In this document: positions 2,953 to 19,316 of the stretch, one piece after another
Position numbering within the stretch: position 1 is the first letter of the stretch
Layout of the letters: every line of letters begins with the position of its first letter
Program-made: the position numbers and the translations under genes
From: an uncultured Acidobacteriota bacterium
GTDB taxonomy: Bacteria > Acidobacteriota > Blastocatellia > RBC074
Reading direction: 5' to 3'
DNA length: 42,451 nucleotides
NCBI GenBank assembly: GCA_903828635.1
Contig: CAIKMY010000092.1
Location: 1 to 42,451 of the forward strand
The notes under the pieces: model-generated
Told to the model about the DNA's origin: nothing
The model's database searches: none
What the model saw: the letters and a program-made list of their open reading frames with translations, nothing else

Positions 2953-4094
2953 ACGGTGAATTCGACTTCATCGAGCATATCCGCCGTCGGGCACAGAGAC
3001 TGGCGGCTCCGGTCGATCTCATTCGCGGGATTGGCGATGATACGGCCATTCTCGGCCAGCGGACTGGCAAAGAAACACTAATCACGGTTGATCTGCTGGT
3101 CGAAGAGGTCGACTTCAGGCTCGACTATGCAATACCGCGCTGGCTGGGCCACAAATCGCTGGCCGTCAGCCTGAGCGATATCGCCGCGATGGGTGGAAGG
3201 CCGCGGTTTTCGCTGCTGACGCTCGGGATAACGCCACAACTCACCTTTCGCGAGCAGACGGAGAGCATCGCACATTTCTGGGAGGAGTTCTTCGCCGGCT
3301 ATTTTGAGCTTGCCGAACGGCACGGCGTCACCCTCGTTGGAGGTGATATCTCTTCGATGCCGGGCAGACTGACAATCGACTCGATCCTGCTTGGAGAATG
3401 TCATGCGGGTCAGGCGGTGAAACGAAGCGGGGCACGGCCGGGAGATGGGATCTATGTCACCGGCGAGCTCGGCGCTTCGGCGGTCGGGCTGCGGCTCCTC
3501 CTCGAAGGTGCGCGTCCCGGTCAGGAGATGAGCGACTGGCAACGGGCCGCGATTGAGGCTCACCTGCGGCCAATCCCGCGGGTGGAGGCTGGCCGTGATC
3601 TTGGCGAGTCACAGCTGGCTGGCGCCATGATTGACATCAGTGATGGACTGGCCCGGGACCTTGGCCATCTCTGCGAGGAGGGCCGCGTCGCCGCAGTCAT
3701 CACCCGTGACGCGATCCCGGTTTCGCCCTGCCTCTTGCAACTCGATGCCAGCGACGACGAGCGACTCCACCTTGCCATTGCTGGCGGCGAGGATTTTGAG
3801 CTGCTCTTCACCGCTCCTCCCGCGAAAGAGGCCGAAATCGGTGCCGTTGCCACCAGCCATGACCTGAAGATTACCCGTATCGGAGAGATCATCGAGCCAC
3901 GCGATGGTCAGCCGCCATTGCTGCTGCTTGACCGCGGAAAGATGCGCCCGATTGCGCCCCTTGGCTTTGACCATTTCACGATGCCTGATGAGCCTCGCGT
4001 GTGTATGACCATGCCCAGGCTATCAGGAGAAACTGCAACGGCATCCGTATCCAGTGAAAGAGCAACGGAAGCTCCGGATAGAGATGGCGGTTGA
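2949..4094 (+). CDS. thiL: Thiamine-monophosphate kinase
   Basis: GEFDFI start, GIGDDTA, SLSDIAAMGG, LVGGD, RSGARPGD.IYVTG.LG, MIDISDGL, GGEDFELLFT and GFDHF motifs. ATGA overlap with the upstream gene. Confidence 0.95.
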   Translation: MNGEFDFIEHIRRRAQRLAAPVDLIRGIGDDTAILGQRTGKETLITVDLLVEEVDFRLDYAIPRWLGHKSLAVSLSDIAAMGGRPRFSLLTLGITPQLTFREQTESIAHFWEEFFAGYFELAERHGVTLVGGDISSMPGRLTIDSILLGECHAGQAVKRSGARPGDGIYVTGELGASAVGLRLLLEGARPGQEMSDWQRAAIEAHLRPIPRVEAGRDLGESQLAGAMIDISDGLARDLGHLCEEGRVAAVITRDAIPVSPCLLQLDASDDERLHLAIAGGEDFELLFTAPPAKEAEIGAVATSHDLKITRIGEIIEPRDGQPPLLLLDRGKMRPIAPLGFDHFTMPDEPRVCMTMPRLSGETATASVSSERATEAPDRDGG

Positions 4095-4356
4095 CCAGCA
4101 TATGAATGTTGGCCGGATAGACTGCCAGCAGCAGGAGAATCACCCCCCATGCTGCCAGCCGGCGATAGCGTGGTAAAAGCAGCAGCAGCCCGAGAATAAA
4201 TTCGATCGCTCCAGCCATCAGGTGCAATGCCGACGGCCACGGAAGGTATGGCGGCATGATCCGCAAATAGAAATCGGGATTGATGAAGTGATTGACCCCG
4301 GCGGTCACATAGAACATGGCCTGAAAATATAGCAGAATCTTTTTGACTGTCGTCAT
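3976..4356 (-). CDS. DoxX-like small membrane protein
   Basis: About four hydrophobic segments with AGVNHF.NPDFY.RIMPPYLP, LLAVYPANI and RMPLQ, typical of the DoxX-like membrane family. Confidence 0.8.
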   Translation of the reverse strand: MTTVKKILLYFQAMFYVTAGVNHFINPDFYLRIMPPYLPWPSALHLMAGAIEFILGLLLLLPRYRRLAAWGVILLLLAVYPANIHMLVNRHLYPELPLLFHWIRMPLQFLLIAWAWSYTREAHQAS

Positions 4357-4409
4357 TCCGGGTATCCCCCTGTCTCACGAATTAAAGCGAATCGAAACCC
4401 GAATCCGGG

Positions 4410-5051
4410 TCAGTTGATCAGGCCATTACGAAAAGCAAAGCGCACCAGTTCACCGACGCTGTGGAGATTGAGCTTCTCCATGATGCGGCCGCGATGAGAG
4501 TCGACGGTATAGGTGCTGATATCGAGCGTCAGGGCAATCTCCTTGTTGGTTCGCCCCTCGGCGATCATCTGCAACACCTCGCGTTCGCGGGTTGTCAGCA
4601 TGTCGATGGGATCGGTGACGTGCTTACGATAGTCGCTGAGCACGGCATCAGAAACCTCCGGGCTGAGATATCCTTGTCCGGCAGCGAGGGCACGCACGGC
4701 GAAGAGCAGGTCTTTATCTCCAGCCTCTTTCAGCAGATAACCGCTGGCCCCGGCACGCAGAATTTCACGAACATAGACCGAATCGCGATGCATGCTCAGG
4801 GCAAGGATGCGGGTGCGCGGCGAGATGGCCAGCAACCGTCGTGTCGCCTCGATACCGTTGAGTTCCGGCATCGAGACATCCATCAGCACGACATCGGGCT
4901 GCAACTGCTCGGCGAGGGTAATAACCTCACGGCCATTGGCCGCTTCACCAATGACACTGAGATCGGGCTCGGCGGCAAGAATCATGCGAAATCCCTGACG
5001 AACGACCGCATGATCGTCGGCAATCAGAATGGTCGTACTTTTTCGCGACAC
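4410..5051 (-). CDS. NarL/FixJ (LuxR-type) DNA-binding response regulator
   Basis: ILIADDHAVVRQG, PDVVLMDVSMP (phospho-Asp), GASGYLLK, LTTREREVLQMIAEGRTNKEIA HTH. Start reassigned to GTG 5051, which follows GAGGAG and the kinase stop codon. Confidence 0.93.
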   Translation of the reverse strand: MSRKSTTILIADDHAVVRQGFRMILAAEPDLSVIGEAANGREVITLAEQLQPDVVLMDVSMPELNGIEATRRLLAISPRTRILALSMHRDSVYVREILRAGASGYLLKEAGDKDLLFAVRALAAGQGYLSPEVSDAVLSDYRKHVTDPIDMLTTREREVLQMIAEGRTNKEIALTLDISTYTVDSHRGRIMEKLNLHSVGELVRFAFRNGLIN

Positions 5052-5055
5052 GGCA

Positions 5056-6366
5056 CTACTCCTCGCCCGGCGGGCTCTCCTCGTGCGGCGGCCTCGCGGG
5101 CACGCGAATGGCGACACGGACTCCGCCGGATGCCTGAACGGTTTCAATATTTGAGATGCTGAAAACACCGCCAAGCTGCTCGGCACGAGCCCGCATACCG
5201 GTCAGTCCCAATCCGGGAGCACGTCCGGGAACCACGGGCCCCGATTGCTTCCTCGGCAAACCGCTGCCGTTGTCGGTGATCGTCAGCATAATTTCGCCAC
5301 CAACTTGTTCAAGCTCAAGGCGAATGCGGGTCGCGCCGGCATTCCTCGCCACATTGGTCAGCGCCTCCTGTGTAATCCGGTAGAGATGGGTCTCGACATC
5401 ATCTTCGAGACGGCCAACGTCCTGAAAATCGGTCTCAACCTGAATTCGTGTCCGCTCTTCGAATCGCTCGGCAAGCCAGCGCAGAGCTGCCGGCAGCCCG
5501 AAATCATCAAGAATCACCGGACGCAGCAACTGGGATAATTCACGCACATTGCCGATGGCCTCGTCAAGAAGGCTCAGGCAGGCGCCACGGCGCACCTGAA
5601 GTTCGTGTGGCTGCACAATGGAGATCGTGGCCTTGAGTGCTGTCAGTGACTGACCAAGTTCGTCGTGCAGCTCGTGTGAGAAGCGACGTGCTGCCTCTTC
5701 CTGCCCCTGAATCAGATGCCACGAGACGCGGTTGATCTCCGTTGCCTGCCAGGCAATTCGACGCATCGACTGGAGGGTGAAGCGGATGGTGACCACCGCA
5801 CAGGCCAGCGAGATCAAAATTGCGCCAATCAGCAGGCTGCCTGTTTCACTTGCCAACCGGGTCGAGGCCTCTTCAATGCTCACTCCACCGGCAGCGGCAC
5901 CAAGGGCATCGAGCTTCAGCGCCTCATCGATCAGCCGGATGAAGTCATCGTAACGCTGCTCGACAAGTGTCAGAGCCACTTTCCGACTCATCGCCTGTTT
6001 TATCGTCGAAGAATAGGCTGCTCCGGCCTGATTCAACTGATCCCAGATCGGACTGGGCAGAACCCGTCCCCCCTCCCGCGTCAGTTCCGGCAGGATACCC
6101 TCAAACTCTCGCAGTCGCTCATCGATGCGGCCAAAATCGGAGCGTGCGACGATCAGCAGCAGCGTGCTGGCACGATGCTGCTCAAGTTCGAGCCTTTCGA
6201 TCAGCTTGACGGCAAAGAGATGATCACCGACGAGGATGTTTGCCTGGCGGCGAATCTCCTCCGCCTGGCGTAGTCCGAGCCATGCGAGTACCGCGAGGAT
6301 GACAATCACCAGCGTGAAACCGGCGGTCAGAATCCACAATGAGCGATTGGCAGTTTTATATGGCAC
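5056..6366 (-). CDS. Membrane-bound sensor histidine kinase (HisKA_3, NarX/UhpB class)
   Basis: Two TM helices flank a helical extracytoplasmic domain of about 140 aa. H-box ELHDELGQSL, N-box QEALTNV, DNGSG and GLGLTGM G-boxes. Confidence 0.92.
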   Translation of the reverse strand: MPYKTANRSLWILTAGFTLVIVILAVLAWLGLRQAEEIRRQANILVGDHLFAVKLIERLELEQHRASTLLLIVARSDFGRIDERLREFEGILPELTREGGRVLPSPIWDQLNQAGAAYSSTIKQAMSRKVALTLVEQRYDDFIRLIDEALKLDALGAAAGGVSIEEASTRLASETGSLLIGAILISLACAVVTIRFTLQSMRRIAWQATEINRVSWHLIQGQEEAARRFSHELHDELGQSLTALKATISIVQPHELQVRRGACLSLLDEAIGNVRELSQLLRPVILDDFGLPAALRWLAERFEERTRIQVETDFQDVGRLEDDVETHLYRITQEALTNVARNAGATRIRLELEQVGGEIMLTITDNGSGLPRKQSGPVVPGRAPGLGLTGMRARAEQLGGVFSISNIETVQASGGVRVAIRVPARPPHEESPPGEE

Positions 6367-6393
6367 CCATCCCCCCCAAATTGGTCAGCAAAC

Positions 6394-6437
6394 ATCCCCG
6401 ATCGGGGGGATATCGTCACCAGCGACGATCGCATAAT
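6394..6437 (+). promoter_or_regulatory. Candidate activator site (ATCCCC-N6-GGGGAT) and -10 element (CATAAT) for the SulP-dab operon
   Basis: Inverted repeat at 6394-6411 (core CCCCGATCGGGG) and CATAAT at 6432-6437. The repeat centre falls at about -41.5 if +1 is near 6444. Confidence 0.45.
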
Positions 6438-6502
6438 CTGCAACGCGACTGAGCAACAATGGTGTCAATGATCGCTCGATACTGTCAATGGGGAAATTAA
6501 CG

Positions 6503-8095
6503 ATGAACGCATCCTCCGCAAAAACATGGAAGACCGACATGGGCTCGGGTTTTCTGGTATTTCTGATTGCTCTTCCACTCTGTCTTGGCATCTCGATGGC
6601 GAGTGGATTTCCGCCGGTAGCAGGAATTCTGACGGCGATCGTCGGCGGCATGATCACAAAATTCATTGGAAGCGCACGGCTGACGATCAAAGGGCCGGCA
6701 GCAGGGCTGATCGTCATCGCCCTTGGTGCAGTGACGGAGCTGAGCAACGGGGATCCTGTCGGCGGATATCGACGCGCACTGGCGGTCGGGGTGGTTGCCG
6801 GGGTGCTGCAGATCCTGCTGGCGCTCGGACGCACGGGGGTGGTTGGTGAGTTGATGCCATCGGCGGTGGTTCACGGCATGCTGGCAGCCATCGGCGTGAT
6901 CATCATCTCGAAGCAGACCCACACGCTGTTGGGGGTGACGCCAGAGGGCAAGGAACCACTCCACCTGCTGGCGGAGATCCCGCACAGCCTCACCCGACTC
7001 AATCCGGAAGTCTTTGTCATCGGGCTGGTATCACTGATTGTTCTCTTCGGGCTGCCTCTGATCAAACAGAAGTGGGCACGCAAGGTGCCGGGGCCGATGA
7101 TCGTCCTCGCGCTGGCAGTACCGCTCGGGTTTATCTTTGATCTGCGCGACGAGCATAACTATTCGCTGCTCGGCCACATCTATCACCTTGGTCCGAAACT
7201 GCTCATCCGCCTGCCGGGATCGCTGCTCGGCGCGCTCTCGTTCCCGGATTTCTCGCAGATACTCAGTCCGGTGTCGATCAAATACATCATTATGTTTACG
7301 CTGGTGGGATCGATCGAATCCCTGCTGAGCGTGACCGCGGTCGATTCACTTGATCCCGAGAAGCAGACGAGCGACCTCAATCGTGACCTCCTTGCGGTCG
7401 GAGTTGGCAACACGATCGCCGCAGCGATTGGCGGACTGCCAATGATCTCGGAGATCGTCCGCAGCAAAGCCAATATCGACAATGGTGCGAAGAGCGCCTG
7501 GTCAAATTTCTTTCACGGTACATTCCTGCTGCTCTCGGTGGCGCTGATCCCCGGGCTGCTGCAACAGATCCCGCTGGCGGCACTGGCGGCGATGCTGATC
7601 TACACTGGTCTGCGCCTGGCGTCACCAAGCGAATTCAAACACGTCTACCACGTCGGGCCGGAGCAGTTGCTGATCTTCGTGACGACAATGATGGTAACCC
7701 TGATGACCGATCTGCTGGTCGGCGTCGGAATCGGGCTGGTACTCAAAATCGTGCTTCATCTGGTCAATGGTGCTCCGCTGAAGAGCCTCTTCCGCAGCAT
7801 CATCGAAGAGAAACAGGAGGGCGACACGCTGACACTCGAGGTGCGTGACGCGGCGATCTTCACCAATTTCCTCGGACTGAGCAATCGTCTGAAGTCACTG
7901 GATGCCTCGGTTCGCCGGGTGGTGATCGATTTCGAGAATGCGTTGGTCGTCGATCACACAGTGCTCAACAAGCTGTCAGGGTTGTCAGGACGTTGGACGG
8001 ATCGTGAAATGGTGCTGGTCGGACTCGACAATCACAAGCCATTTTCGAATCACGATCTGGCAGCGCGGAAGCGTTCCCGTCAGGGAGCAGCTTAA
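6503..8095 (+). CDS. SulP/SLC26 inorganic anion (probably bicarbonate) transporter with short STAS-like C-terminus
   Basis: GFLVFLIALPLCLGIS.ASG, IKGPAAGL, GSIESLLS, GGLPMISEIVRS.ANI and IPLAALAA SulP motifs. Start is ATG 6503 (GGGGA SD) or ATG 6488. Confidence 0.92.
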   Translation: MNASSAKTWKTDMGSGFLVFLIALPLCLGISMASGFPPVAGILTAIVGGMITKFIGSARLTIKGPAAGLIVIALGAVTELSNGDPVGGYRRALAVGVVAGVLQILLALGRTGVVGELMPSAVVHGMLAAIGVIIISKQTHTLLGVTPEGKEPLHLLAEIPHSLTRLNPEVFVIGLVSLIVLFGLPLIKQKWARKVPGPMIVLALAVPLGFIFDLRDEHNYSLLGHIYHLGPKLLIRLPGSLLGALSFPDFSQILSPVSIKYIIMFTLVGSIESLLSVTAVDSLDPEKQTSDLNRDLLAVGVGNTIAAAIGGLPMISEIVRSKANIDNGAKSAWSNFFHGTFLLLSVALIPGLLQQIPLAALAAMLIYTGLRLASPSEFKHVYHVGPEQLLIFVTTMMVTLMTDLLVGVGIGLVLKIVLHLVNGAPLKSLFRSIIEEKQEGDTLTLEVRDAAIFTNFLGLSNRLKSLDASVRRVVIDFENALVVDHTVLNKLSGLSGRWTDREMVLVGLDNHKPFSNHDLAARKRSRQGAA

Positions 8096-8112
8096 CAGGA
8101 GTCTGTTGAACA

Positions 8113-11100
8113 ATGGCACACTCAAAGCATCAGGAGACGGGCACGACTCCGGCCGAGCGGCTGGGCCAGGTGCTGTCGCACGCAGCACACCTGCTGCCGG
8201 CTCAGGGCCCGATCGGTGTCTTTATTCATCACAACACCCTGCACGCCTTCCAGCACCTGCCATTTGAGCAGGCAGTGGTCGAGGCGGGCAGGATCTTTGG
8301 GGCCGAGCCATTCCTGACCGAGGCCCGCTATCGTGACGAGATTCGCCGCGGAAGGATCCTGCCTGGTGATATCGACGAGGTGCTCGGCGAAGAGAAGGAC
8401 CTGACCATCTGGCCACGGACACTCAGCCGACAGGGGCTGCGGCGAACCCTGCTCAGGCAGGGGCTGCGCAGATTTACCGCCGACAACATCGAGTGGATGA
8501 TTGAAGAAGAGGGATTGCTCGACCGGCTGCGTGACGATCTGGAGCCGGCTGCCCGTGAATCAATACTTGGAGTTGCATCGACAGGCAGCACGGACGCCGG
8601 CAACGAACTGACAGCCGGAGAGAGTGAGCGGCAGGCAGCACGGGCGCTCTTTGCGGCCTGCTATCGCCGGCTTCCACTCTCGGAGTCGCCGGAGGCGCCG
8701 CGGCCGGAGCGACCGCGAGATGCGATTCTGACGGCTGGTGGCGAAGACATTGATGAGGAGATCAATGCCCTGCTCATCCGGCTCTGCGCCGTCTTCCTCG
8801 ATCAGGGACAGGCCTACTGGCCAATGCCTCAACGCAGGAGTGGTTTTTATCAGGCGGTTCGCAGCCTCTTTGGAACGGCGGGGATCTTTGCGCTCATGCC
8901 GGATCGTCGCCATTTCAAAGGGCTTGGTGCGCAGTTCCAGCGTCAGGCCAATGACAGAATGACCGCCAGCGAGGTGGTGCTGTCAATCCTCGACAAGTTT
9001 GGAGTTGCGGAAGCGGACTGGGAAAGTTTTCTGACAGCCGAACTGTTATCGCTGCCCGGCTGGGCAGGTCTGATGAGTCAGCTTGAGAGCAATCCGGCGC
9101 TCGCGCCTCATGAGCCTCTTCCGGCGTCACTTCTCGACTATCTGGCGGTGCGATTAACGCTGATGGAGACAGCCGCCGCCAATGCCTGGCGCATGAGCGG
9201 CCAGACCGGCGAAGTCGCGAGTTCGTGGAGAAGAGTGGTCGCACCAAAGTCGTTACCATCGGAAGCCGCGCACATGGCCGAGGTTGCCCGCCTTTATGAT
9301 GCCGCACAAATGCTCGGGATCTCAGCGGGTGAGCTCAGTTCACTGAGCGAGGTGGAGTTTCAGCGGCTGATGGCGGAACTGACAATCTTTGACGAAAACG
9401 AACGGCGCCGCCTGCTGCATCTCGCCTACGAGCGTCGCCATGAAAAGGAGATCCTCGCGCCAATCAATCATCACCGGCAGGCGATCAATCCGTCGAGGAG
9501 CGCGGAGCGACCGCGGGCTCAGGTCTTCTTCTGCATCGACGAACGCGAGGAGTCGATGCGACGGGCACTGGAAGAGTGTGCCCCCGAGGTCGAGACGCTG
9601 GGCGCCGCCGGATTCTTCGGGGTAGCGGTCAATTACAAGGGCATCGATGATGCGCACGGCGTGGCGCTCTGCCCGGTAGTGGTCACACCACAGCATGCGA
9701 TCATCGAGAAGCCGGCTGCGAATGAAGCCCATCTGCATGAAAAACGGCAGCGGCGGCGCCGGCTCTGGGCAGATCTGACTCACGCCAGCTTCATTGGCTC
9801 ACGCACGCTGATTCGCGGATGGATCGGCACAACCGGGCTGGGCATTGCCTCACTCTTTCCACTGGTCATGCGGGTGCTGGCTCCGCGAAGAGCGGGAGAG
9901 ATCTACCGCTGGCTCGGGAAGAGGTTCCTGCCTGATCCGCGCACCGAACTGACGCTGATGCGCAACGACCAGTCAGAACAGGCGGCAGTGACCGATCAGT
10001 TACTCCTCGGATTCACCATCTGCGAGAAGGCAGAGCGTGTCGCCTCAGTGCTGCGTCCGGCTGGTGCGATTCGCAATCTTGCACGCCTTGTCGTCATTCT
10101 CGGACACGGATCGACGAGCCTCAACAATCCGCACGAATCGGCTCACGATTGCGGTGCCTGCGGCGGCAGGCGGGGTGGTCCGAATGCCCGGCTTTTCGCG
10201 GCAATGGCCAATAATCCCAATGTTCGTCGGCAATTGCGTGATATGGGGAGCGACATCCCCGAGGATACCTGGTTTCTTGGAGGCTATCACGACACCTGCA
10301 ATGACGATGTGATCTTCTTCGACGAGCAGCTGGCACCAGCCAGCCACGCCGAAGACCTGAGATTCGCGCGCACGGTCTTGGACGCAGCCCGTGCAGCGAA
10401 TGCGCTTGAACGCTCACGCCGCTTTGAAGCGGCGTGGGCGGACAAGTCGCCCGCAGCGGCGCTTCGCCACGTGCAGGAGCGTGCCGAGCATCTTGCCGAA
10501 CCGCGTCCCGAGTATGGCCACGCGACCAACGCCGTAACGATCGTCGGTCGTCGCCAGATGACAACCGGACTCTTTCTTGACCGGCGAGCATTTCTCATCT
10601 CCTACGACCCGACAACCGACGCTGACGGGCGGTCACTGGCAGCACTGCTTGGAGCCGCAGGTCCGGTCTGTGCCGGGATCAACCTTGAGTATTATTTCTC
10701 CTACGTCGACAACGAACGCTACGGATGTGGAACCAAGCTGCCCCACAACGTCACCGGACTGGTTGGCGTCATGAATGGTCACGCCAGCGATCTGCGCACC
10801 GGGCTGCCCTGGCAAATGGTCGAGGTCCACGAGCCGGTACGGCTCCTGCTGATCGTTGAAAACACCCCGGAAAAGACTCTCGCCGCCGCCTTCCAGAGCC
10901 CGGTTGTCCGTGAATTGATCGAGAAGCGCTGGATTCGCCTGGTCACGATCGATCCTGTGGATGGCACAATTCACGTTTACAGGTCTGGCAAGAATGGCGA
11001 AGACGCCCGGTTTGAGCCCTTTACCGAAACGGTTGAGAGGCTGCCGGAGTTTAACAGCTCGCCGGAATGGTACCTCGGTAAGCTTGAACACCTGCCGATC

Positions 11101-11121
11101 GTGCGTATCCGGCAGTCATAG
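8113..11121 (+). CDS. dabA: Inorganic carbon transporter subunit DabA (DUF2309/UPF0753, beta-carbonic-anhydrase-like)
   Basis: LPAQGPIGVFIHHNTLHAF N-terminus. Zn ligands in FCIDEREES (C, D), GHGS (H) and DCGACGG (C, 15 residues after H). Also EPRPEYGHA, INLEYYFS and GDL-like DLRTGLPWQ. Confidence 0.93.
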   Translation: MAHSKHQETGTTPAERLGQVLSHAAHLLPAQGPIGVFIHHNTLHAFQHLPFEQAVVEAGRIFGAEPFLTEARYRDEIRRGRILPGDIDEVLGEEKDLTIWPRTLSRQGLRRTLLRQGLRRFTADNIEWMIEEEGLLDRLRDDLEPAARESILGVASTGSTDAGNELTAGESERQAARALFAACYRRLPLSESPEAPRPERPRDAILTAGGEDIDEEINALLIRLCAVFLDQGQAYWPMPQRRSGFYQAVRSLFGTAGIFALMPDRRHFKGLGAQFQRQANDRMTASEVVLSILDKFGVAEADWESFLTAELLSLPGWAGLMSQLESNPALAPHEPLPASLLDYLAVRLTLMETAAANAWRMSGQTGEVASSWRRVVAPKSLPSEAAHMAEVARLYDAAQMLGISAGELSSLSEVEFQRLMAELTIFDENERRRLLHLAYERRHEKEILAPINHHRQAINPSRSAERPRAQVFFCIDEREESMRRALEECAPEVETLGAAGFFGVAVNYKGIDDAHGVALCPVVVTPQHAIIEKPAANEAHLHEKRQRRRRLWADLTHASFIGSRTLIRGWIGTTGLGIASLFPLVMRVLAPRRAGEIYRWLGKRFLPDPRTELTLMRNDQSEQAAVTDQLLLGFTICEKAERVASVLRPAGAIRNLARLVVILGHGSTSLNNPHESAHDCGACGGRRGGPNARLFAAMANNPNVRRQLRDMGSDIPEDTWFLGGYHDTCNDDVIFFDEQLAPASHAEDLRFARTVLDAARAANALERSRRFEAAWADKSPAAALRHVQERAEHLAEPRPEYGHATNAVTIVGRRQMTTGLFLDRRAFLISYDPTTDADGRSLAALLGAAGPVCAGINLEYYFSYVDNERYGCGTKLPHNVTGLVGVMNGHASDLRTGLPWQMVEVHEPVRLLLIVENTPEKTLAAAFQSPVVRELIEKRWIRLVTIDPVDGTIHVYRSGKNGEDARFEPFTETVERLPEFNSSPEWYLGKLEHLPIVRIRQS

Positions 11122-11137
11122 AAGTGAGAACTTAGTC

Positions 11138-12547
11138 ATGGAGAAGATTTCAGCCCTTATCGTATTTCTGCCTGGTCTGGTTGCAGCAACGCTCGGATTG
11201 GGATGGCTGCTTGGCTGGAAACCAGGGGAGCGCACCGTCGCACGAATGACCAGCTCCTGTTACCTGCTGGCAGGCGTGGCCGTAGTGGCACTGCTCGGCT
11301 GGATGCTGCAGACAGGTCAACACGAAGTCCGCCTCTCACTCGGTTACTGGTTTGAGCTTGAGGAGTATCGTTTTCCCCTGGTGCTGCTGATCGACCGTTT
11401 GTCGATGCCGCTGGTGGCCTTGAGCGTGCTGCTCGTCGGGGTGATCGGTGCCTTCTCCGTGAGCTACGTCCATCGTGACGAGGGTTTTCTGCGGTTCTTC
11501 GTGCTGCTCAACCTTTTTGGATTCGGGATATTGCTGCTCTTCACGGCAGGATCGTTCGACCTGATGATTGCCGGGTGGGAGTTGGTCGGGCTGACCTCGG
11601 TGCTGTTGATCGGCTTCTTCCAATTTCGTAACGATCCGGTGAGAAGCGCGCTGCGCGTCTTCCTGACCTACCGCATCTGTGACATCGGGCTGCTGACGGG
11701 CGTGGCGATGCTGCATCATTTCGCCGGAACGGGATCATTCGACCAGCTCTTCACCGGGCCCTGGCCGAACGGCATCTCGCTGCTGACCGGTACCGGAGCA
11801 ATGATTGTCGGCGCACTCTTCCTGCTGGCGGCAATGGGCAAGGCCGCGCAGGTTCCTTTTTCAGGATGGTTGCCGCGGGCAATGGAAGGACCAACCCCGT
11901 CGAGTGCGATCTTTTACGGAGCACTTTCAGTCCATGCGGGTGCCTATCTGCTGCTGCGAGCCCAGCCGCTGATCGCCTCATCGCTGGTAGTCTCGGCGGC
12001 GGTGGTGACGATCGGCATCGTGACAGCAATTCACGGAACGATGGTCGGCCGAGCCTGTGCCGATGCCAAAACGGCAATCGGATATGCGGCGATGAGCCAG
12101 CTCGGTATCATCTTTGTCGAGATTGGTCTGGGATTGAAATGGATAGCGTTGACCCATATCACCGGTCATGCAGTGGTACGCACGCTGCAGTTTCTGCGTG
12201 CCCCGTCGATGCTGCACGATCATCATCGATTGCATGCGGCGGCGGGAGGCCATCTGGGCGAGACAGGAGCCCACTTTGAAATGCTGTTGCCGGCAAGCCT
12301 GCGCGTCTGGCTCTACCGCCTGGCAATCGAGCGTGGCCATCATGACACGATGCTCGATCGCTGCATCGTTGCACCGGTGATCAGACTGGCAGGGCAAATG
12401 GAGATGATCGAAGAGCGATTAGCCAACTCCATCATCGGACCGGCAAGACCTGAGCACGAACGGCTGGCAATTCGCAACGGGCTGCGCTCAATTGGTAAAT
12501 CAGGACGGGTAGCTCTCGGCCACAAACTGGAGAATGCGGATGTCTGA
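11138..12547 (+). CDS. dabB: DabB, NuoL/ND5-like proton-conducting membrane subunit (PF00361/PF00662)
   Basis: IDRLS, GWELVGLTS.LLIGF, GKAAQVPFSGWLPRAMEGPTPSSA and HAG.YLL. Shorter than NuoL and directly after dabA. Start reassigned to ATG 11138; the ORF-track start overlaps dabA. Confidence 0.9.
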   Translation: MEKISALIVFLPGLVAATLGLGWLLGWKPGERTVARMTSSCYLLAGVAVVALLGWMLQTGQHEVRLSLGYWFELEEYRFPLVLLIDRLSMPLVALSVLLVGVIGAFSVSYVHRDEGFLRFFVLLNLFGFGILLLFTAGSFDLMIAGWELVGLTSVLLIGFFQFRNDPVRSALRVFLTYRICDIGLLTGVAMLHHFAGTGSFDQLFTGPWPNGISLLTGTGAMIVGALFLLAAMGKAAQVPFSGWLPRAMEGPTPSSAIFYGALSVHAGAYLLLRAQPLIASSLVVSAAVVTIGIVTAIHGTMVGRACADAKTAIGYAAMSQLGIIFVEIGLGLKWIALTHITGHAVVRTLQFLRAPSMLHDHHRLHAAAGGHLGETGAHFEMLLPASLRVWLYRLAIERGHHDTMLDRCIVAPVIRLAGQMEMIEERLANSIIGPARPEHERLAIRNGLRSIGKSGRVALGHKLENADV

Positions 12548-14009
12548 AACGCTGATCCTTCCCTGGGTAAGTCTGAGTGTGCTGACGCTGACGACAGCGG
12601 CCATCTGGTCGTGGCGCCAGCAGACGGCAGAGTCAGCGCGACGTGGTGGAACAATCGCGCTGGGACTGGCGACAATCCTGCTGATTGCCGTCGGAGCAGA
12701 GACTGCATTTGGCGGGCACTCGCTGCACGAACCACTCCCGGTCGCACTGCGCTGGGTGCTGATCGACGCGCTCAACGCCACACCGCTGCCACTCTACGCT
12801 GCATTGGCCCTGGGCCTCATGATTCTTGCGCCGCGACGCAAGGTGACACCGCAGTGGGTCTCGGGCATTCTGCTGCTGACGGTTGCCACCATTGTCGCTT
12901 ATGCGGCCGGGAATCTGGCAATCTTTGCGCTCGGCTGGGTGATTTCGCTGGTGCCGTTTTTTGAGCGACGATTCTTCGCGATCACCGATCAGAATCCGAT
13001 GCCATTGCCGGCACGTATCGTCCTCGCCTTCAGTGCGGTTCTGGTCATTGCCGGGGTGGCAATGATCGCCCTCGAGACGCCGGGCGACCTGACGACGAAG
13101 CTGAGTATCGGATTGCCGCGTACCGGTCTCTCGACAATGCTCTTCCAGGCGTTCGGCTGCCTGATGGCCGCAGTCTTTCTGCGCAAGGGCCTGGTGCCGG
13201 CCCACACCTGGGTACTGCCCTCATTTGAACGCGGTCCGCTGATCCCGCTGACCCTGCTCTTCAATGGCCACCTCGGAGCCTTCCTCATCGCGAGGATAAC
13301 CCTGCCGGCGCTGCCGGATATCTCCTCCCAGGCCCTGCCGCTGCTGGGAAACCTCGGCTTGCTGACGGCCGCCTTCACGGCGGTGCTGGCCATCGTCGAG
13401 CGTCAGCCTCGCCGGCTGCTGGCATTGCTCGCCATCAGTCAGGCATCCTTTCTCGTGGTCGGACTCGAAAGCAGAAATCCCGACGCCATCGCCGGTGCGC
13501 TGGTTCACTGGCAGGTAGTCGCCATCGCCTCATCGATGCTGACCGCGGTCTACGCCGCGATCGAGGCAAGGCTTGGAGCGGCACCCGACGCCAGACAACA
13601 TCTCGGGCTGGCCTCCGGAGCCCCGCGCCTTGCGGTCTTCTTTGCCGCTGGCGGACTCGCACTCGTCGGACTGCCGCTGACCCTCGGCTTCTGCGCCGAG
13701 GACCTTCTGCTCCACGGCACCATGGAGACACATCCACAAATCGGCATCATCCTGCCGATCGTCACCGCACTCAATGCCTTTAACGTGCTGCGGCTCTTCG
13801 CGAGGCTCTTCCTCGGCAAACCATCGCAGTCGGCCATCGAGATCAGGGACGCACTCCCACGCGAGCGCTGGGTGCTGACGGCAGCGCTCCTCTTTCTGCT
13901 GATCGGGGGCCTGCGACCAGCATACTTCGTGCACCTCCCCGCAAAGGCAGCGGAGATGATCCGTCCCGGCTTCGGAGCCGGGGCCACTTCTTCGAGGAGC
14001 GTCAAGTGA
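12540..14009 (+). CDS. Second proton-conducting transporter subunit (NuoM/ND4-like, DabC-type third subunit)
   Basis: Highly hydrophobic, with PAHTW, LALVGLPLTLGFCAEDLLL and DALPRER resembling NuoM. Overlaps the dabB stop; GGAG SD precedes ATG 12540. Confidence 0.82.
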   Translation: MSETLILPWVSLSVLTLTTAAIWSWRQQTAESARRGGTIALGLATILLIAVGAETAFGGHSLHEPLPVALRWVLIDALNATPLPLYAALALGLMILAPRRKVTPQWVSGILLLTVATIVAYAAGNLAIFALGWVISLVPFFERRFFAITDQNPMPLPARIVLAFSAVLVIAGVAMIALETPGDLTTKLSIGLPRTGLSTMLFQAFGCLMAAVFLRKGLVPAHTWVLPSFERGPLIPLTLLFNGHLGAFLIARITLPALPDISSQALPLLGNLGLLTAAFTAVLAIVERQPRRLLALLAISQASFLVVGLESRNPDAIAGALVHWQVVAIASSMLTAVYAAIEARLGAAPDARQHLGLASGAPRLAVFFAAGGLALVGLPLTLGFCAEDLLLHGTMETHPQIGIILPIVTALNAFNVLRLFARLFLGKPSQSAIEIRDALPRERWVLTAALLFLLIGGLRPAYFVHLPAKAAEMIRPGFGAGATSSRSVK

Positions 14010-14758
14010 AATCATTGAAACTTGGGACATCGGGAACCTGGCTGCTCTTCGCGGCTCTCTCAATTGGCATCAGCGGTCGGGCGCAGACCCCGGCAACCTC
14101 GCAGGCCGGACTGGCGGCGCAAACCTCGACCGAGGCATCACAGGTTACTCCGCCGCGCGAGGACCATCAGTTCTGGAACGAGATCCAGCTCACCAAACAT
14201 CTCAATTCGAAGCAGGATCTGGTGACGATAGGTGTGGTGCGTATCGGGCGCAACTGGCAGCGACCGGTAGACGAGCGCATCGGCGTCGGACTTGCCTTCA
14301 GGATCAATCCTCACCTGATGATCATGCCAACCTATCTCCACGTCGAATACCAGCCATACCCCGGCAGGATCATTCACGAGGAACGCCTGATCCTCAATGC
14401 CACCCTCAGGGGAACACTCCGGAAGTTCCTCTTTACCGATCGTAACCTTTACGAGCGCCGCGTCCGCCCGGGCACTGCCGACTTCAATATCTACCGCAAC
14501 CGCCTGCAGATCGACCATCCCGCCCATCTCGGCAGCTTTAAATTCAAGCCATTTGTTGCCGACGAAGCGTGGTATTCTTCCCAACATCGCGCCAATGGCC
14601 AACAATTTGGCTGGTTTCGCAATCGCATCTCGGCAGGGATCATTAAACAACTGAGCGAGCACCTCAGCGGCGAGTTCTTTCTGCTGATGCAGAATGACGG
14701 ACTCTCGCGTCCGGGCAATATCCCTGTGGTTGGCACTCTCTTCCGATATACGCTCTGA
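14006..14758 (+). CDS. DUF2490-like outer-membrane beta-barrel protein
   Basis: Signal peptide, alternating amphipathic beta-strands, EER, DRNLYERR, YRNRLQI, ADEAWY and RNRISAG motifs, C-terminal strand GTLFRYTL. GTGA overlap with the upstream gene. Confidence 0.72.
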   Translation: MKSLKLGTSGTWLLFAALSIGISGRAQTPATSQAGLAAQTSTEASQVTPPREDHQFWNEIQLTKHLNSKQDLVTIGVVRIGRNWQRPVDERIGVGLAFRINPHLMIMPTYLHVEYQPYPGRIIHEERLILNATLRGTLRKFLFTDRNLYERRVRPGTADFNIYRNRLQIDHPAHLGSFKFKPFVADEAWYSSQHRANGQQFGWFRNRISAGIIKQLSEHLSGEFFLLMQNDGLSRPGNIPVVGTLFRYTL

Positions 14759-15965: not shown

Positions 15966-18602
15966 ATGTCCATTCGCGTCACCAGGCACTTCGTTCCGGC
16001 AATGATTGCCGCAATTCTGATCACGCTTCCTTTCTGGTCGAGTGGAGCCCAGTCTCCGGCGACACGTCGACTGCCGGGCAGCAAGGGGTTGAGCACACTG
16101 CTGCCGAATGGCTGGACACTGACACCGGAGGGCGCGCAGATTCCGGTCAACGACCTGCCGATGAACATGGTCCTCAGTCGTGACGGGCGTTATGTGCTGG
16201 TGACGACCAACGGCAACGGCGATCAGGGTGTCGAGATCATCGACCGGACGACCGGCAAAAAGACGCAGACGATCACGATCAACAAGTCGTGGCTGGGAAT
16301 TGAATTTGCAATTGACGGAAAGAGTTTCTTTGTCTCCGGCGGCGACGACAATGAACTGCTGGTCTTCGATTTTGCCGCCGGACAAGCTACGAAAACCGGA
16401 AAGATCATTCTTGGCAGCGAGGCCTATCACGCGCTTGGCGATCGTGGGCGCGAGGAATCACGAAGCAAGGGGCGTGGCGAATATGCCTTTCCGGCGGGGA
16501 TTGGGGTCTCGCCTGATGGCAAGCGGCTCTACGTGGCAGAGAACCTGACCAACAAGGTTGCGGTGGTCGATATCACCTCGCGCCGGGTGATTGCCAAAAT
16601 CGAAGTTGGAGAGTACCCATACGACTGCATTGTCTCGCCAAATGGCAAGCTGGCCTATGTCAGCAATTGGGGATCACGAAGCGTCTCGACGATCGACACC
16701 TCGATCAATGAAGTGGTCGGGACGATCCAGGTTGGAGACCATCCGAATGACCTCGAGCTGACACGTGATGGCCGATTTCTCTATGTGGCCAATGCCAACA
16801 GCAACACGGTCTCGGTGGTCGATACGCGGCTGGGGAGAGCGGTGGCGGCAATCTCGACGGCGCTCCATCCGAAGTCGCCAATCGGCAGTACACCCAACGC
16901 GCTCGCTCTCTCGCCCGACGAGAAGACTCTCTACATCGCCAATGCCGACAACAACAACATCGCCCTTGCCACCGTGGCCGACCCGGAGGATGGGAAGGTG
17001 CGGGGATTCATTCCGACCGGCTGGTATCCGAGCTCGGTACGCGTCAGCCCGGATGGCCGGCAGCTGATCGTTGCCAACGGAAAGGGGCTCGTTTCGAGCG
17101 CCAATCCGAAAGGACCGATACCAACGAAAGCGCGGGGGAAGGATACCGAATACATCGGCAGCCTGCTGAGGGGGACGATCTCGCTGATCCCGGTTCCGGG
17201 CACGGCAGCGCTGGCGCGAATGACAACGCGGGTCTACGCCAATTCGCCCTACACCGACGACCTGCTGAAAGCAGCACGCCCGCCAAAGGAGAAGACGGCC
17301 ATTCCGGTGCGTGTCGGAGATCCCTCGCCGATCAAACACGTGATCTATATCATCAAGGAGAACCGCACCTACGATCAGGTTCTCGGCGATATGAAAGAGG
17401 GCAATGGTGACGCGAGTCTCTGCCTCTTTGGCGAAGATGTCACGCCCAACCAGCACGCCATCGCGCGTGAGTTCGTGCTGCTCGATAATTTCTACGTCGA
17501 CTCCGAAGTCTCAGCCGACGGTCACAACTGGTCAATGGGGGCCTATGCCACCGACTATGTCGAGAAGACGTGGCCAACCAACTACTCGCGACGCGGGCGC
17601 ACCTACGATTACGAGGGAAGCAGGAAGATTGCGAGGCCAACCGGCGGCTACATCTGGGACTACTGTGCCCGCGCCGGCGTCAGTTACCGCAGTTACGGTG
17701 AGTTTGTCGGCATTCGTGACGTCAAAGCCGGAGGCGGGGGTGAGGCCGATCTTGGTCGTGACCGGGCTCCAGGCTCGGAGAGCTACACTTCAGAAGAGGC
17801 GCTGAGGGGCCACTTCAGTCCGACCTACCCGCCATACGACCTCTCGATCCCGGATGTGAAGCGGTTCGAGCGCTGGCTGGAGGAGTTCCGTGAGTTTGAG
17901 AAGAATGGCAACCTGCCACAGTTTCAAATCGTTCGCTTCGGCAACGATCATACTCAGGGGACGCGGGTTGGCGCGCCAACGCCACGGGCCTATGTCGCGG
18001 AGAACGACCTTGCCGTCGGCAAGCTGGTCGAGGCGGTGAGCAACAGCCGCTACTGGGAGTCGACGGCAATCTTCATCCTCGAAGATGACGCGCAAAACGG
18101 GCCGGATCATGTCGATGCTCATCGCTCGATCGCCTTTGTCATCAGCCCCTACACCAAGCGGAAAGTTGTCGATTCGACGATGTACACGACATCGAGCATG
18201 CTGCGGACGATGGAGCTGATCCTCGGGCTGCCGCCAATGAGTCAGTACGATGCGGCGGCGACCCCGATGTATAACTCGTTCACCAGCAAGGCCGACCTGA
18301 CGCCTTTTCGTCATCGGCCGGCAAAGTATGACTGGAGTGAGCGAAACGCCCCCAATGCGCCTTCGGCACAGCGCTCGGCACAGTTTGACTTCAGCAAGGA
18401 AGACACCCTCCCTGATATCGAGTTTAATGAGATAATCTGGAAAGCAGTGAAGGGTGGCCACTCGGCCATGCCGGCACCGGTACGCAGTGCTTTTGTCCGG
18501 AGCGTTGACCTCGACGATGATGATGAAGAGGACGACGACGAGCGAAAGCCGGCGCCGCGAAGCAAAATCGGACGAAAAGCGACTGAGAGCAGATCACGGT
18601 AA
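15966..18602 (+). CDS. Secreted YVTN/YncE beta-propeller plus phosphoesterase (alkaline phosphatase superfamily) fusion
   Basis: Signal peptide; repeated SPDGK.LYVAN...N.VSVID blades; PIKHVIYIIKENRTYDQVLGD, SEVSADGHNW, NDHT.G and EDDAQNGPDHVDAHRS; acidic C-terminal tail. Confidence 0.9.
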   Translation: MSIRVTRHFVPAMIAAILITLPFWSSGAQSPATRRLPGSKGLSTLLPNGWTLTPEGAQIPVNDLPMNMVLSRDGRYVLVTTNGNGDQGVEIIDRTTGKKTQTITINKSWLGIEFAIDGKSFFVSGGDDNELLVFDFAAGQATKTGKIILGSEAYHALGDRGREESRSKGRGEYAFPAGIGVSPDGKRLYVAENLTNKVAVVDITSRRVIAKIEVGEYPYDCIVSPNGKLAYVSNWGSRSVSTIDTSINEVVGTIQVGDHPNDLELTRDGRFLYVANANSNTVSVVDTRLGRAVAAISTALHPKSPIGSTPNALALSPDEKTLYIANADNNNIALATVADPEDGKVRGFIPTGWYPSSVRVSPDGRQLIVANGKGLVSSANPKGPIPTKARGKDTEYIGSLLRGTISLIPVPGTAALARMTTRVYANSPYTDDLLKAARPPKEKTAIPVRVGDPSPIKHVIYIIKENRTYDQVLGDMKEGNGDASLCLFGEDVTPNQHAIAREFVLLDNFYVDSEVSADGHNWSMGAYATDYVEKTWPTNYSRRGRTYDYEGSRKIARPTGGYIWDYCARAGVSYRSYGEFVGIRDVKAGGGGEADLGRDRAPGSESYTSEEALRGHFSPTYPPYDLSIPDVKRFERWLEEFREFEKNGNLPQFQIVRFGNDHTQGTRVGAPTPRAYVAENDLAVGKLVEAVSNSRYWESTAIFILEDDAQNGPDHVDAHRSIAFVISPYTKRKVVDSTMYTTSSMLRTMELILGLPPMSQYDAAATPMYNSFTSKADLTPFRHRPAKYDWSERNAPNAPSAQRSAQFDFSKEDTLPDIEFNEIIWKAVKGGHSAMPAPVRSAFVRSVDLDDDDEEDDDERKPAPRSKIGRKATESRSR

Positions 18603-18647: not shown

Positions 18648-19316
18648 ATGGCGATGATCGAAATCAACATCGGAGCGGCGGTTGAGAGTGGTGGAGTCGA
18701 ACTCGGCCGAATCGAGCAGGTGATACTCGACCGCAATACTGGCGAGGTGACCCATCTGGTGGTCAGGCACGGCGGCGCACTCCATTCGCGCCACATTGTC
18801 ATGCCACTGAATTGGATCACCAGCTCTGACTCCGAGCGGGTGGTGATCGAAAGAAACGAGAGCGAGCTCGAGGATCTGCCAAATTTTGAGATGCGCCACT
18901 ATGTCAGTCTCGACAGGCTTGACGAGGAGCAGTGGGAGCATCCCCGATCGCGGATTCGACCGACTGACTGGATCAATTATCTCGTACCACTGATCGCCAA
19001 CGCCTTCGGTGATCCGCTCCACACTCCGGGAGTCGTCGTCACCGACCAGTTGCTCTCGGCGACTGAGAGCGCCATTCATCGTGGAATGGCAATAGTGTCT
19101 GACGACGAACAGAAAGTCGGCGAGCTGCTCGAACTGCTGGTAACCGAGCCCGAAATGCGTTTCAGCGGGCTGATTATCGCTCACGGGCTGATCACCGTGC
19201 GCGCGGTGCACATCCCCGCCGACTGGGTCGAGACGATTCAGCACGATCGCATTCTGCTCAATCGCTCGTACGAACAGGTCGAAAGCTGGATCGAGTCAAA
19301 GGCTGGTGAAGGATGA
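18648..19316 (+). CDS. Tandem PRC-barrel domain protein
   Basis: Two repeats: IGAAVES.G.ELGRIEQVILD...VTHLVV and HRGMAIVSDD.QKVGEL.ELLV. AGGAG SD. Confidence 0.75.
   Translation: MAMIEINIGAAVESGGVELGRIEQVILDRNTGEVTHLVVRHGGALHSRHIVMPLNWITSSDSERVVIERNESELEDLPNFEMRHYVSLDRLDEEQWEHPRSRIRPTDWINYLVPLIANAFGDPLHTPGVVVTDQLLSATESAIHRGMAIVSDDEQKVGELLELLVTEPEMRFSGLIIAHGLITVRAVHIPADWVETIQHDRILLNRSYEQVESWIESKAGEG

Follow-up and report, generated by a model that had tools for sequence, protein, structure and literature searches.

The locus analyzed here raises the question of what a DAB inorganic-carbon pump does when it is encoded in one operon with a SulP-family anion transporter and a putative outer-membrane barrel, beside a sensor kinase and response regulator, in a bacterium that looks heterotrophic. 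The operon lies on the plus strand, at positions 6488-14758, of a 42,451-nucleotide contig from an uncultured Acidobacteriota bacterium (GenBank assembly GCA_903828635.1, contig CAIKMY010000092.1, contig C92 in our numbering), and this whole stretch is called the window throughout. While DABs in heterotrophs, the DAB1 and DAB2 types and the DabC subunit are already known, what is of interest here is the finding of a DAB core, a SulP, a barrel and a regulator pair together in one tight, conserved, regulator-flanked operon. The gene content, the catalytic and channel residues, the homology of the third membrane subunit with DabC and the linkage of the parts are direct observations, and the explanation that we consider probable is that this heterotrophic freshwater bacterium uses the locus as an inducible operon for acquiring inorganic carbon.

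Domains were called with Pfam on the open reading frames of the window, and equivalog assignments were checked with NCBIfam. The five co-oriented plus-strand genes encode a SulP/SLC26-family anion transporter (6488-8095; Sulfate_transp, 203.7 bits), the cytoplasmic, beta-carbonic-anhydrase-like DabA (8113-11121; 1002 aa; PF10070, 805.8 bits), the NuoL-like DabB (11138-12547; 469 aa; Proton_antipo_M (PF00361), 136.9 bits, and Proton_antipo_N, 32.2 bits), a third, full-length NuoM-like membrane subunit (12534-14009; 491 aa; PF00361, 81.9 bits) and a DUF2490 barrel (14006-14758; PF10677, TC 1.B.81; 71.1 bits against a cut-off of 29.8). Head-to-head with them, on the minus strand, are genes for a sensor histidine kinase (5056-6366; HisKA_3, 32.9 bits, and HATPase_c, 48.1 bits) and a response regulator of the NarL/LuxR type (4410-5051, in a frame open to 5186; Response_reg, 94.3 bits, and GerE, 75.7 bits), the most likely start of which is the GTG at 5051, 4 bp past the kinase stop. 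The dabB frame is open from 10961, and its most likely start is the ATG at 11138, because the alignments with relatives begin only at about residue 50-67 of the open frame. The intergenic spacings are therefore +17 bp for sulP/dabA, +16 bp for dabA/dabB, -14 bp for dabB/third gene and -4 bp for third gene/DUF2490, and with this start the tight packing of five co-oriented genes described in the first-pass annotation is borne out by the frames and the Pfam calls.

DabA matches PF10070 over profile positions 2-747 (cut-off 25 bits) and DabA2 of PDB 9rd0_A with an E-value of 1.1e-61 (phmmer). That all four Zn ligands are present, as had been claimed, holds: C474, D476, H665 and C680 align to the ligands C351, D353, H524 and C539 of DabA2 and are invariant in 9/9 aligned DabA sequences of Acidobacteriota, as are the motifs GAAGFFG, NNPHES and HDCGACGG. 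This is the only DabA gene in the source genome. DabB keeps the proton-path residues E148, K235, H266, D309, K311, E328, H340, H344 and R348, and the helix-5 glutamate (E148) is also kept in its branch. In DabB2, this glutamate is reported to be replaced by Ile151, and its restoration to halve activity (Lo et al., 10.64898/2026.03.13.711513).

The third membrane subunit had been taken as a NuoM-like extra, from which a candidate new system was proposed, and here the comparison with DabC leads elsewhere. Its best NCBIfam match is NuoM (123 bits, below cut-off). DAB1 is described as a DabA1-DabB1-DabC heterotrimer, from Thermocrinis albus cryo-electron microscopy and Halothiobacillus neapolitanus (Phillips et al., 10.64898/2026.05.01.722082, PMC13684180), in which DabC is said to be about half of NuoM and to have no Pfam family (Phillips et al., PMC13684180); DabC is also reported as essential (Schmid et al. 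2021, PMC8570276, as cited). Canonical DabC sequences were taken from 251 genomes sampled from the class of a Nitrosomonas locus, 58 of which carry DabA (a tally that includes one unpublished genome, otherwise left out), and eight loci with long DabA genes were drawn from this sample. Seven of the eight have dabB (555-560 aa), a gene for a 247-253-aa protein with 6-8 hydrophobic segments, and dabA (1038-1094 aa), gene sizes that agree with the published H. neapolitanus DAB1; in the eighth, the small protein is apparently fused to DabA. In hhalign, 17 long third subunits matched six small DabC sequences with a probability of 93.7% (E 1.9e-7, 229 columns), the match running from residue 220 to 461 in the window protein and from position 15 to 246 of 252 in DabC, as compared to 0.15% (E 0.38) for a control in which the DabB profile was set against DabC. 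The long third subunits also matched DabB (98.3%, E 1.1e-14), and the window subunit therefore bridges PF00361 and DabC. By these profile comparisons, the third subunit is a long homologue of DabC, with DabC corresponding to its C-terminal half. The core is, as a consequence of this homology, a three-subunit DAB of a third clade and not a new system. In two gammaproteobacterial DAB1 loci (L159:4961-8827 and L138), the DabA frame has about 1290 aa and no separate dabC was found, which suggests DabC-DabA fusions in some loci of this kind.

The third subunit was further compared with E. coli NuoM (E144, K234, K265 and E407, verified in the K-12 translation) and with 56 relatives. NuoM E144, on helix 5, corresponds to V136 in the window, with Glu in 0/56 relatives; K234 corresponds to R217, with Arg in 55/56; K265 falls in an alignment gap and was not scored; and E407 corresponds to E389, with Glu in 33, Gln in 10 and Asp in 6 of the 56. 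Because the helix-5 glutamate is lost while a conserved arginine and glutamate are kept, the subunit more likely tunes or stabilizes the complex than pumps. A predicted complex of DabB with the third subunit gave a median interface score (ipSAE) of 0.78, as compared to 0.00 for the best of three controls; the 0.78 mark is met by 58/80 solved complexes and by 2/110 mismatched pairs. At least 81% of contacts recur between runs, the partners have a predicted local distance difference test score (pLDDT) of at least 80, and in the interface DabB residues 141-194, with E148 among them, contact residues 284-474 of the third subunit, i.e. its DabC-like half. As NuoL-NuoM complexes are solved, this pass may mirror the likeness to NuoL-NuoM, and the prediction is best considered as model evidence of that likeness rather than of binding.

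To place the core among known DABs, we rely on a quick maximum-likelihood tree of 127 DabA rows, from which rows shorter than 800 aa and L133 (an unpublished genome) were excluded and in which the midpoint root is a drawing aid only. The tree splits, with 100% support in the Shimodaira-Hasegawa-like approximate likelihood-ratio test (SH-aLRT), into 35 rows of DAB1 and DAB2 types, with the gene orders dabB-dabC-dabA and dabB-dabA, respectively, and 92 rows on the side of the window. The 92 comprise 83 rows with the order dabA-dabB-long DabC (99% support), the window among them, and a group of nine. By record titles, the 83-row group includes Acidobacteriota, Verrucomicrobiota, Planctomycetota, Armatimonadota, Gemmatimonadota, Bacteroidota, Myxococcota, Actinomycetota and others. 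The window DabA thus falls, in the sampled set and by this sequence tree, in a third clade separate from DAB1 and DAB2. Most loci of the nine-row group, which is sister to the clade of the window and includes records labelled Nitrosomonas, Rubrobacter and Actinomycetota, have several extra PF00361 genes; a larger multi-antiporter form, with one PF00361 gene upstream of dabA and three downstream (L089, L095, L096, L099, L104 and L115), makes up most of this group. DabA also occurs in records titled Heliomicrobium, Kuenenia stuttgartiensis and Akkermansia muciniphila (L038, L066, L075 and L078). L066 is too short for the tree, in which the other three are placed within groups of Acidobacteriota, Planctomycetaceae and Verrucomicrobiaceae rows; the labels or binning of these assemblies may be unreliable.

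The window core shares with DAB1 its three subunits, a long DabA (1002 aa, with 1046 aa for DabA1 of H. neapolitanus), the spacing of E675, D679 and C680 around the last Zn ligand (E704, D708 and C709 in DAB1), and a DabC-homologous subunit that has lost the helix-5 glutamate. It differs from DAB1 in the order dabA-dabB-third gene, as opposed to dabB-dabC-dabA in 20 sampled gammaproteobacterial loci, in a third subunit of 491 aa with a PF00361 match, where canonical DabC has only 247-253 aa, in the retention of R217 and E389 in that subunit, and in the separate clade of its DabA in the quick tree. With DAB2 of H. neapolitanus (PDB 9rd0), it shares the PF10070 and PF00361 pair, the four Zn ligands, the GxxGFFG and NNPH motifs and, in DabB, the Lys, His, Asp and Lys of the proton path. 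DAB2, however, has two subunits, the order dabB-dabA and a DabA of about 825 aa, its DabB2 has Ile151 where the window has Glu148, and the window DabB is nearer to NuoL (Nqo12/NuoL being its best PDB match, 158 bits) than to DabB2 (9rd0_B, 92.7 bits). A NuoL-type and a NuoM-type subunit together with a CO2-hydrating protein are also known from the cyanobacterial CO2-uptake module NDH-1MS (NdhF3-NdhD3-CupA; in part after Phillips et al. PMC13684180), but the window locus has no redox module, CupA is unrelated to DabA and the NuoM-like subunit is partly degenerate here.

Whether the accessory genes belong with this core was addressed by the survey of PF10070 neighbourhoods suggested in the first-pass annotation. 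The survey was anchored on DabA and considered the best 80 public loci; 594 of 600 scanned stretches encoded a relative. Neighbours were counted within 6 kb of the core with custom hidden Markov models (HMMs), and it should be noted that many loci end at contig ends, so that the counts are lower bounds. All but one of the 71 evaluable loci, which come from at least seven phyla, have the dabA-dabB-third gene core (70/71). SulP is found in 41/80 loci, a beta-carbonic anhydrase in 8/80, a HisKA_3 kinase beside DAB or SulP in 11/80, a LuxR regulator in 11/80, kinase and regulator together, in varied arrangements, in 9/80, an ArsR-type regulator directly upstream of dabA in 12/80 (checked with Pfam on two examples), DUF2490 in 5/80 and an Alginate_exp-like barrel in 7/80. 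The linkage extends well past close relatives. Among SulP-less loci, a small ArsR-type helix-turn-helix gene lies directly upstream of dabA, where it replaces the two-component system, in L043-L048, L052, L054, L056, L062, L067, L093 and L101, mostly of Bryobacterales type by title. In one locus labelled Flavobacteriales (L086:4462-8206), dabA, dabB, the third gene and SulP are followed by three tandem beta-carbonic anhydrase genes.

Closer to the source organism, DabA is present in 8/8 genomes of the genus, in 12/24 of the family and in 0/16 from other families of the class, and, when 401 genomes were sampled across the phylum, ten, including the source genome, had a DabA above the cut-off. 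The ten family loci fall into two types by tblastn. The order SulP-dabA-dabB-third gene-DUF2490 (type 1) is seen in four of the ten (L019, L021, L022 and L023), the rest being cut or of type 2, which has a SulP (35% identical), a beta-carbonic anhydrase, dabA, dabB and the third gene. In two type 2 loci (L025 and L026), DUF2490 is convergent just downstream, and in L026 it is followed by a divergent HAMP-HisKA kinase with a sigma-54 regulator. Among genomes from other families of the phylum, G387 has dabA-dabB-third gene-kinase-regulator divergent from SulP-DUF2490, while in G370 SulP, dabA, dabB and the third gene precede a single frame in which a beta-carbonic anhydrase is combined with DUF2490. 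The locus of G250 is of DAB2 type, with the order LysR-dabB-dabA. Such varied arrangements argue for selection on the grouping and against inheritance alone, although the relatives are not independent of each other, and the occurrence of LysR, ArsR, NarL-type and NtrC-type regulators at DAB loci indicates that regulators were swapped between lineages. Between families and phyla the arrangement of DAB, SulP, a barrel and a kinase-regulator pair varies, but their linkage is conserved.

A homologue search with the DUF2490 protein of the window gave 216 proteins at E<=1e-5, the named ones annotated only as 'DUF2490 domain-containing' or hypothetical, and TCDB is reported to list the family as a putative porin of function not established (PMC4827864). 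An AlphaFold2 model from a 27-row alignment (pLDDT 86.2) has a signal-peptide-like N-terminal helix (residues 3-21), a disordered linker and about 12 strands. Foldseek at E<=1e-3 gave nine matches, all beta-barrel membrane proteins, of which eight are bacterial outer-membrane proteins, among them the EspP beta-domain, chitoporin, LpxR, BtuB and Omp32, and one is a mitochondrial VDAC. NanC (template-modelling (TM) scores 0.46/0.54), KdgM and PcoB fell just short of this threshold, and no TM-score exceeded 0.54. The alignment has 14 invariant columns, including six Arg and four Glu, which, if they lie in membrane strands, would be expected to face the barrel lumen. The model supports a barrel, and putatively a small channel, with the signal-peptide-like N-terminus and about 12 strands of the 12-stranded KdgM/NanC channels; it differs from these in that TM-scores stay below 0.55 and in the buried charge network of many DUF2490 members, described for 238 of them in a source that also gives Sec signal peptides for 51/60 (10.64898/2026.07.29.741452). 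A role in passage is favored over an enzymatic one because an unrelated barrel family takes the same place in other loci: Alginate_exp lies between SulP and dabA in four Pfam-verified loci (L049, L050, L051 and L087, 181-198 bits), the survivors of a Pfam check on five, in which L064 was not confirmed.

DUF2490 itself was confirmed by Pfam, at 144-177 bits, in DAB loci of two other Acidobacteriota families and of one Verrucomicrobiaceae record, in proteins only about 20% identical to that of the window (19-20% for G387 and G370). A DUF2490-like fragment in L079 (50 bits with the custom HMM) was not confirmed by Pfam. The gene stands at the co-oriented operon end, convergent, upstream of SulP, downstream of SulP or in one frame with carbonic anhydrase. 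Counted by genome, the DUF2490 genes that lie in the DAB locus are 1/1 in G387 and in G370 (4.3-4.4 Mb each), 2/3 in G009, 1/2 in G022 and 0/2 in G023. In the Verrucomicrobiaceae locus L050, Alginate_exp, SulP and DUF2490 (177.5 bits) are divergent from dabA. This 23-kb locus holds two DAB clusters, 3 kb apart and of different DabA subclades, one with the Alginate_exp-SulP-DUF2490 operon and the other with a distant SulP. The shared frame in G370 (L034:14286-15962, 558 aa) carries Pro_CA at residues 92-242 and DUF2490 at 358-539, joined by a Pro/Gln-rich linker and an internal signal-peptide-like segment in DNA with 72% guanine plus cytosine; it could be a true fusion, or two genes that no stop codon separates.

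The HisKA_3 kinase and receiver-GerE regulator are encoded together, with a 4-bp gap, in a NarX/NarL-type layout. The regulator reaches no NCBIfam equivalog cut-off (best MctR, 193 vs 300 bits), and an orthologue with 70% identity lies beside the DAB cluster of G387 (L030). In the kinase, two hydrophobic segments (residues ~10-32 and 176-196) surround an extracytoplasmic domain of about 145 residues, so that it is probably envelope-sensing; a Pfam scan of this protein gave only a weak, non-significant 4HB_MCP_1 match (E 0.046). The divergent kinase is kept in the family loci L019-L023; in L020 and L021, which extend far enough, the regulator follows it. The 121-bp kinase/sulP intergenic region contains an inverted repeat, ATCCCC-GATC-GGGGGGAT, at 6394-6411, the sole match to a relaxed pattern in the 42-kb window, with its centre about 33 bp upstream of a CATAAT at 6432-6437. 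Its TCCCC-N6-GGGGATA core is kept in 6/6 aligned family intergenic regions, where the flanks drift, and the relaxed pattern occurs in 8/19 loci with a two-component system, as compared to 6/79 without; in two Prosthecobacter records, such matches lie 100-140 bp upstream of dabA. We regard this repeat as a candidate operator to which the regulator would bind.

The source assembly has 4.3 Mb and is 92% complete, which should be considered for every absence given here. The heterotrophic look noted from the window holds: the RuBisCO large subunit was not found in this genome and PEP (phosphoenolpyruvate) carboxylase is present, from which gene content the organism looks heterotrophic. Of the genome-wide check for carbon fixation and carbonic anhydrases that had been proposed, the fixation part came back empty, with no CdhC found in addition to RuBisCO, whereas a carbonic anhydrase is present, as detailed below; alpha-carbonic anhydrase was not found and the PYC_OADA domain had no match. 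A search for ATP-citrate lyase is uninformative, as its control was silent. Near-identical DNA was found only in wastewater, lake and freshwater metagenome runs.

In the mechanism that we favor, DabA, as a zinc enzyme, would hydrate CO2 to bicarbonate in the cytoplasm, and proton flow through the NuoL-like channel of DabB would, by analogy with DAB1 and DAB2, make this hydration one-directional, with the third subunit docking via its C-terminal half on DabB helices 5-6. SulP would move bicarbonate across the inner membrane and the DUF2490 barrel would pass the anion through the outer membrane. The divergent kinase may sense an envelope signal via its extracytoplasmic domain, upon which the LuxR-type regulator would activate the operon from the repeat, and the bicarbonate could feed PEP carboxylase and other bicarbonate-using carboxylases at low ambient CO2. 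It should be noted that the transport activities, their direction, the sensed signal and co-transcription are what we infer here. A more elaborate, tentative version has rather less than even chances in our view: an envelope-spanning carbon route in which DUF2490 and Alginate_exp barrels would be dedicated channels for bicarbonate or small anions, the NarX-like kinase would respond directly to bicarbonate, CO2 or pH in the periplasm, R217 and E389 would form an electrostatic relay with Glu148 and Lys235 of DabB like that between NuoM and NuoL, and the third clade would be gated differently from DAB1 and DAB2 and represent an ancestral form with two antiporters, whose shortening gave rise to the small DabC.

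Several findings weigh against inorganic-carbon acquisition. No experimentally tested member of the window's DabA clade is found within the sampled set. W656, described as a coupling residue (Phillips et al., PMC13684180), is Tyr801 here, and Glu444 of the DabA2 finger motif, which is inserted into DabB and reported as essential (Lo et al., 10.64898/2026.03.13.711513), has no clear counterpart, aligning to Gly in a gapped, low-confidence stretch of the phmmer alignment; in the branch consensus of nine aligned DabA, the finger/elbow-motif stretch has no conserved acidic residue. The charge network buried in many DUF2490 barrels could mean a closed lumen. With respect to co-transcription, a motif scan is uninformative: it gave a single promoter-like site against an expectation of 3.1, and 12 terminator-like sites against an expectation of 8.3, none of them in the intergenic gaps of the operon. 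Sequencing runs with near-identical DNA comprise 11 DNA runs from five studies and no RNA run. Three rival explanations, concerning pH, anion exchange and loose neighbours, are further kept because of the lack of a STAS domain and of NCBIfam cut-off matches in SulP, the carbonic anhydrases and the settings of the DUF2490 paralogues, and each is weighed below with the evidence that touches it.

The carbonic anhydrases bear on pH. The source genome encodes one beta-carbonic anhydrase (C22:950-1597), directly downstream of a second SulP, and DAB is therefore not the sole source of bicarbonate, another point to the detriment of carbon acquisition. Moreover, carbonic anhydrases are co-encoded in sister loci, and as 14 beta-carbonic anhydrase N-termini, including all those in sister loci, lack a signal peptide, a periplasmic enzyme at these loci was rejected. 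A cytoplasmic one would dissipate the pumped bicarbonate pool, and its presence fits poorly with a pure accumulation pump, a problem that is also raised for autotrophs (Scott-lab minireview, PMC10880623). Both the genomic enzyme and those of the sister loci would be easier to understand if the locus served pH or ion homeostasis, with hydration by DAB and bicarbonate efflux by SulP keeping or consuming protons inside and the kinase sensing envelope pH or alkalinity. Gating may also differ, given the helix-5 glutamate kept in this DabB branch in place of Ile151 of DabB2, and a possible pH role of prokaryotic carbonic anhydrases is mentioned by Desmarais et al. (10.1101/476713). All tested DABs, however, are reported to act in uptake (Phillips et al. 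PMC13684180; Desmarais 10.1101/476713; Lo et al. 10.64898/2026.03.13.711513), and published work covers functional DABs of heterotrophs as well as E. coli strains that lack carbonic anhydrases and are rescued by DAB (Desmarais 10.1101/476713; Phillips et al. PMC13684180); the window operon itself has no carbonic anhydrase gene, and the surveyed loci have no conserved Na+/H+ antiporter or other pH-stress gene. We thus consider homeostasis unlikely, even if it is the strongest of the three rivals.

The SulP protein leaves room for another anion. No STAS match was detected in its C-terminal 136 residues, even at E<=1, and it stays below the NCBIfam cut-offs of DauA (170.9 vs 614 bits) and BicA (146.7 vs 880 bits); the missing STAS domain and the low BicA score speak against a bicarbonate importer. 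Its Sulfate_transp core and the adjacent carbonic-anhydrase-type enzymes, here and at C22, resemble BicA, in line with the 'DIC toolkit' (dissolved inorganic carbon) idea of the Scott-lab minireview (PMC10880623), whereas BicA differs in the STAS domain and in score. Close orthologues of the window SulP (500-815 bits) adjoin DAB in Verrucomicrobiota, Planctomycetota, Actinomycetota and Bacteroidota records, and we consider it a putative bicarbonate route. SLC26/SulP proteins include anion:bicarbonate exchangers, and SulP and the barrel might accordingly import sulfate, a dicarboxylate or another organic acid for bicarbonate, with DAB building the outward gradient. DauA, the best NCBIfam similarity, is a C4-dicarboxylate transporter, the nearest small barrels, NanC and KdgM, pass acidic sugars, and Alginate_exp barrels hold the same position in other loci. 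Yet no catabolic or assimilatory genes for such an anion are conserved in the loci, and the second SulP of the genome, cut by contig ends (C22:1-1597 and C96:1561-2112), adjoins the sole beta-carbonic anhydrase, a classic pair that is separate from the DAB operon. Such pairing is usually taken as bicarbonate transport, an interpretation attributed to Felce and Saier (2004). Exchange is thus doubtful, marginally more so than homeostasis.

The low survey counts of DUF2490 and of the kinase-regulator pair count against a joint function, as do the settings of two further DUF2490 paralogues in the source genome: the closer one (C416, 59% identical) has genes for a phosphodiesterase and a large barrel protein beside it, and no flanking protein of the other (C261) has a Pfam family. 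Together with the 12 SulP-less loci that carry an ArsR-type regulator instead, and with the phosphatase-type genes downstream of the operon in the window, this would fit a functional unit of dabA, dabB and the third gene only, to which SulP, DUF2490 and the two-component system are neighbours by inheritance within lineages. Such a loose neighbourhood is the least likely of the explanations considered and, in our opinion, improbable: the parts occur in at least five arrangements across families and two phyla, the only DUF2490 of G387 and that of G370 are both in the DAB locus, stop and start codons overlap by 4 and 14 bp, and the operator-like repeat is conserved.

With inorganic-carbon acquisition as the probable function, the locus extends what is known of DABs in two respects. 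It belongs to a third, widespread clade, in which the third subunit links the small DabC to NuoM of complex I; Schmid et al. 2021 may also bear on three-subunit forms. Its accessory parts, i.e. the DUF2490 barrel, the STAS-less SulP and the sensor-regulator pair, were not found beside DAB in the literature searched. Consistent with the first-pass annotation, which knew of no DAB locus with both a barrel and a two-component system, none was found described there, nor was any work joining DUF2490 to DabA, DabB, SulP or carbon uptake, and the DIC-toolkit minireview (PMC10880623) does not mention 'outer membrane' or 'adjacent'. Through this linkage, DUF2490 proteins are for the first time placed in a functional context. 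If the parts do act jointly, outer-membrane passage of bicarbonate would be a selected, gene-encoded step, DUF2490 would gain a testable function, which for a true channel would be the first for TC 1.B.81, and the kinase would be a concrete candidate for a bacterial CO2/bicarbonate sensor. This bears on the supply of bicarbonate for carboxylations in non-autotrophic soil and freshwater bacteria.

The surroundings of the locus are housekeeping genes by Pfam and NCBIfam, with an M16 peptidase and ThiL upstream and TtcA downstream. The kinase and regulator had been described as a head-to-head unit together with a DoxX gene; the two-component part stands, but DoxX (DoxX/MauE, 3976-4356, minus strand; weak Pfam matches of 26.0 and 27.5 bits, barely above cut-off) was rejected as a member, as it is not conserved. 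By tblastn, it was not found in any of the ten family loci, of which only L020 and L021 extend past the regulator, where ThiL or Lon comes next. Genes for a propeller-phosphoesterase (15966-18602) and PhoD (19313-20830) follow downstream of the operon, and the genes around DUF2490 at the C416 paralogue (C416:4353-10046) encode a phosphodiesterase, an OMP_b-brl_4 barrel of 987 aa and an NtrC-type regulator, a gene neighbourhood that hints at a possible phosphate-related role for some DUF2490 members.

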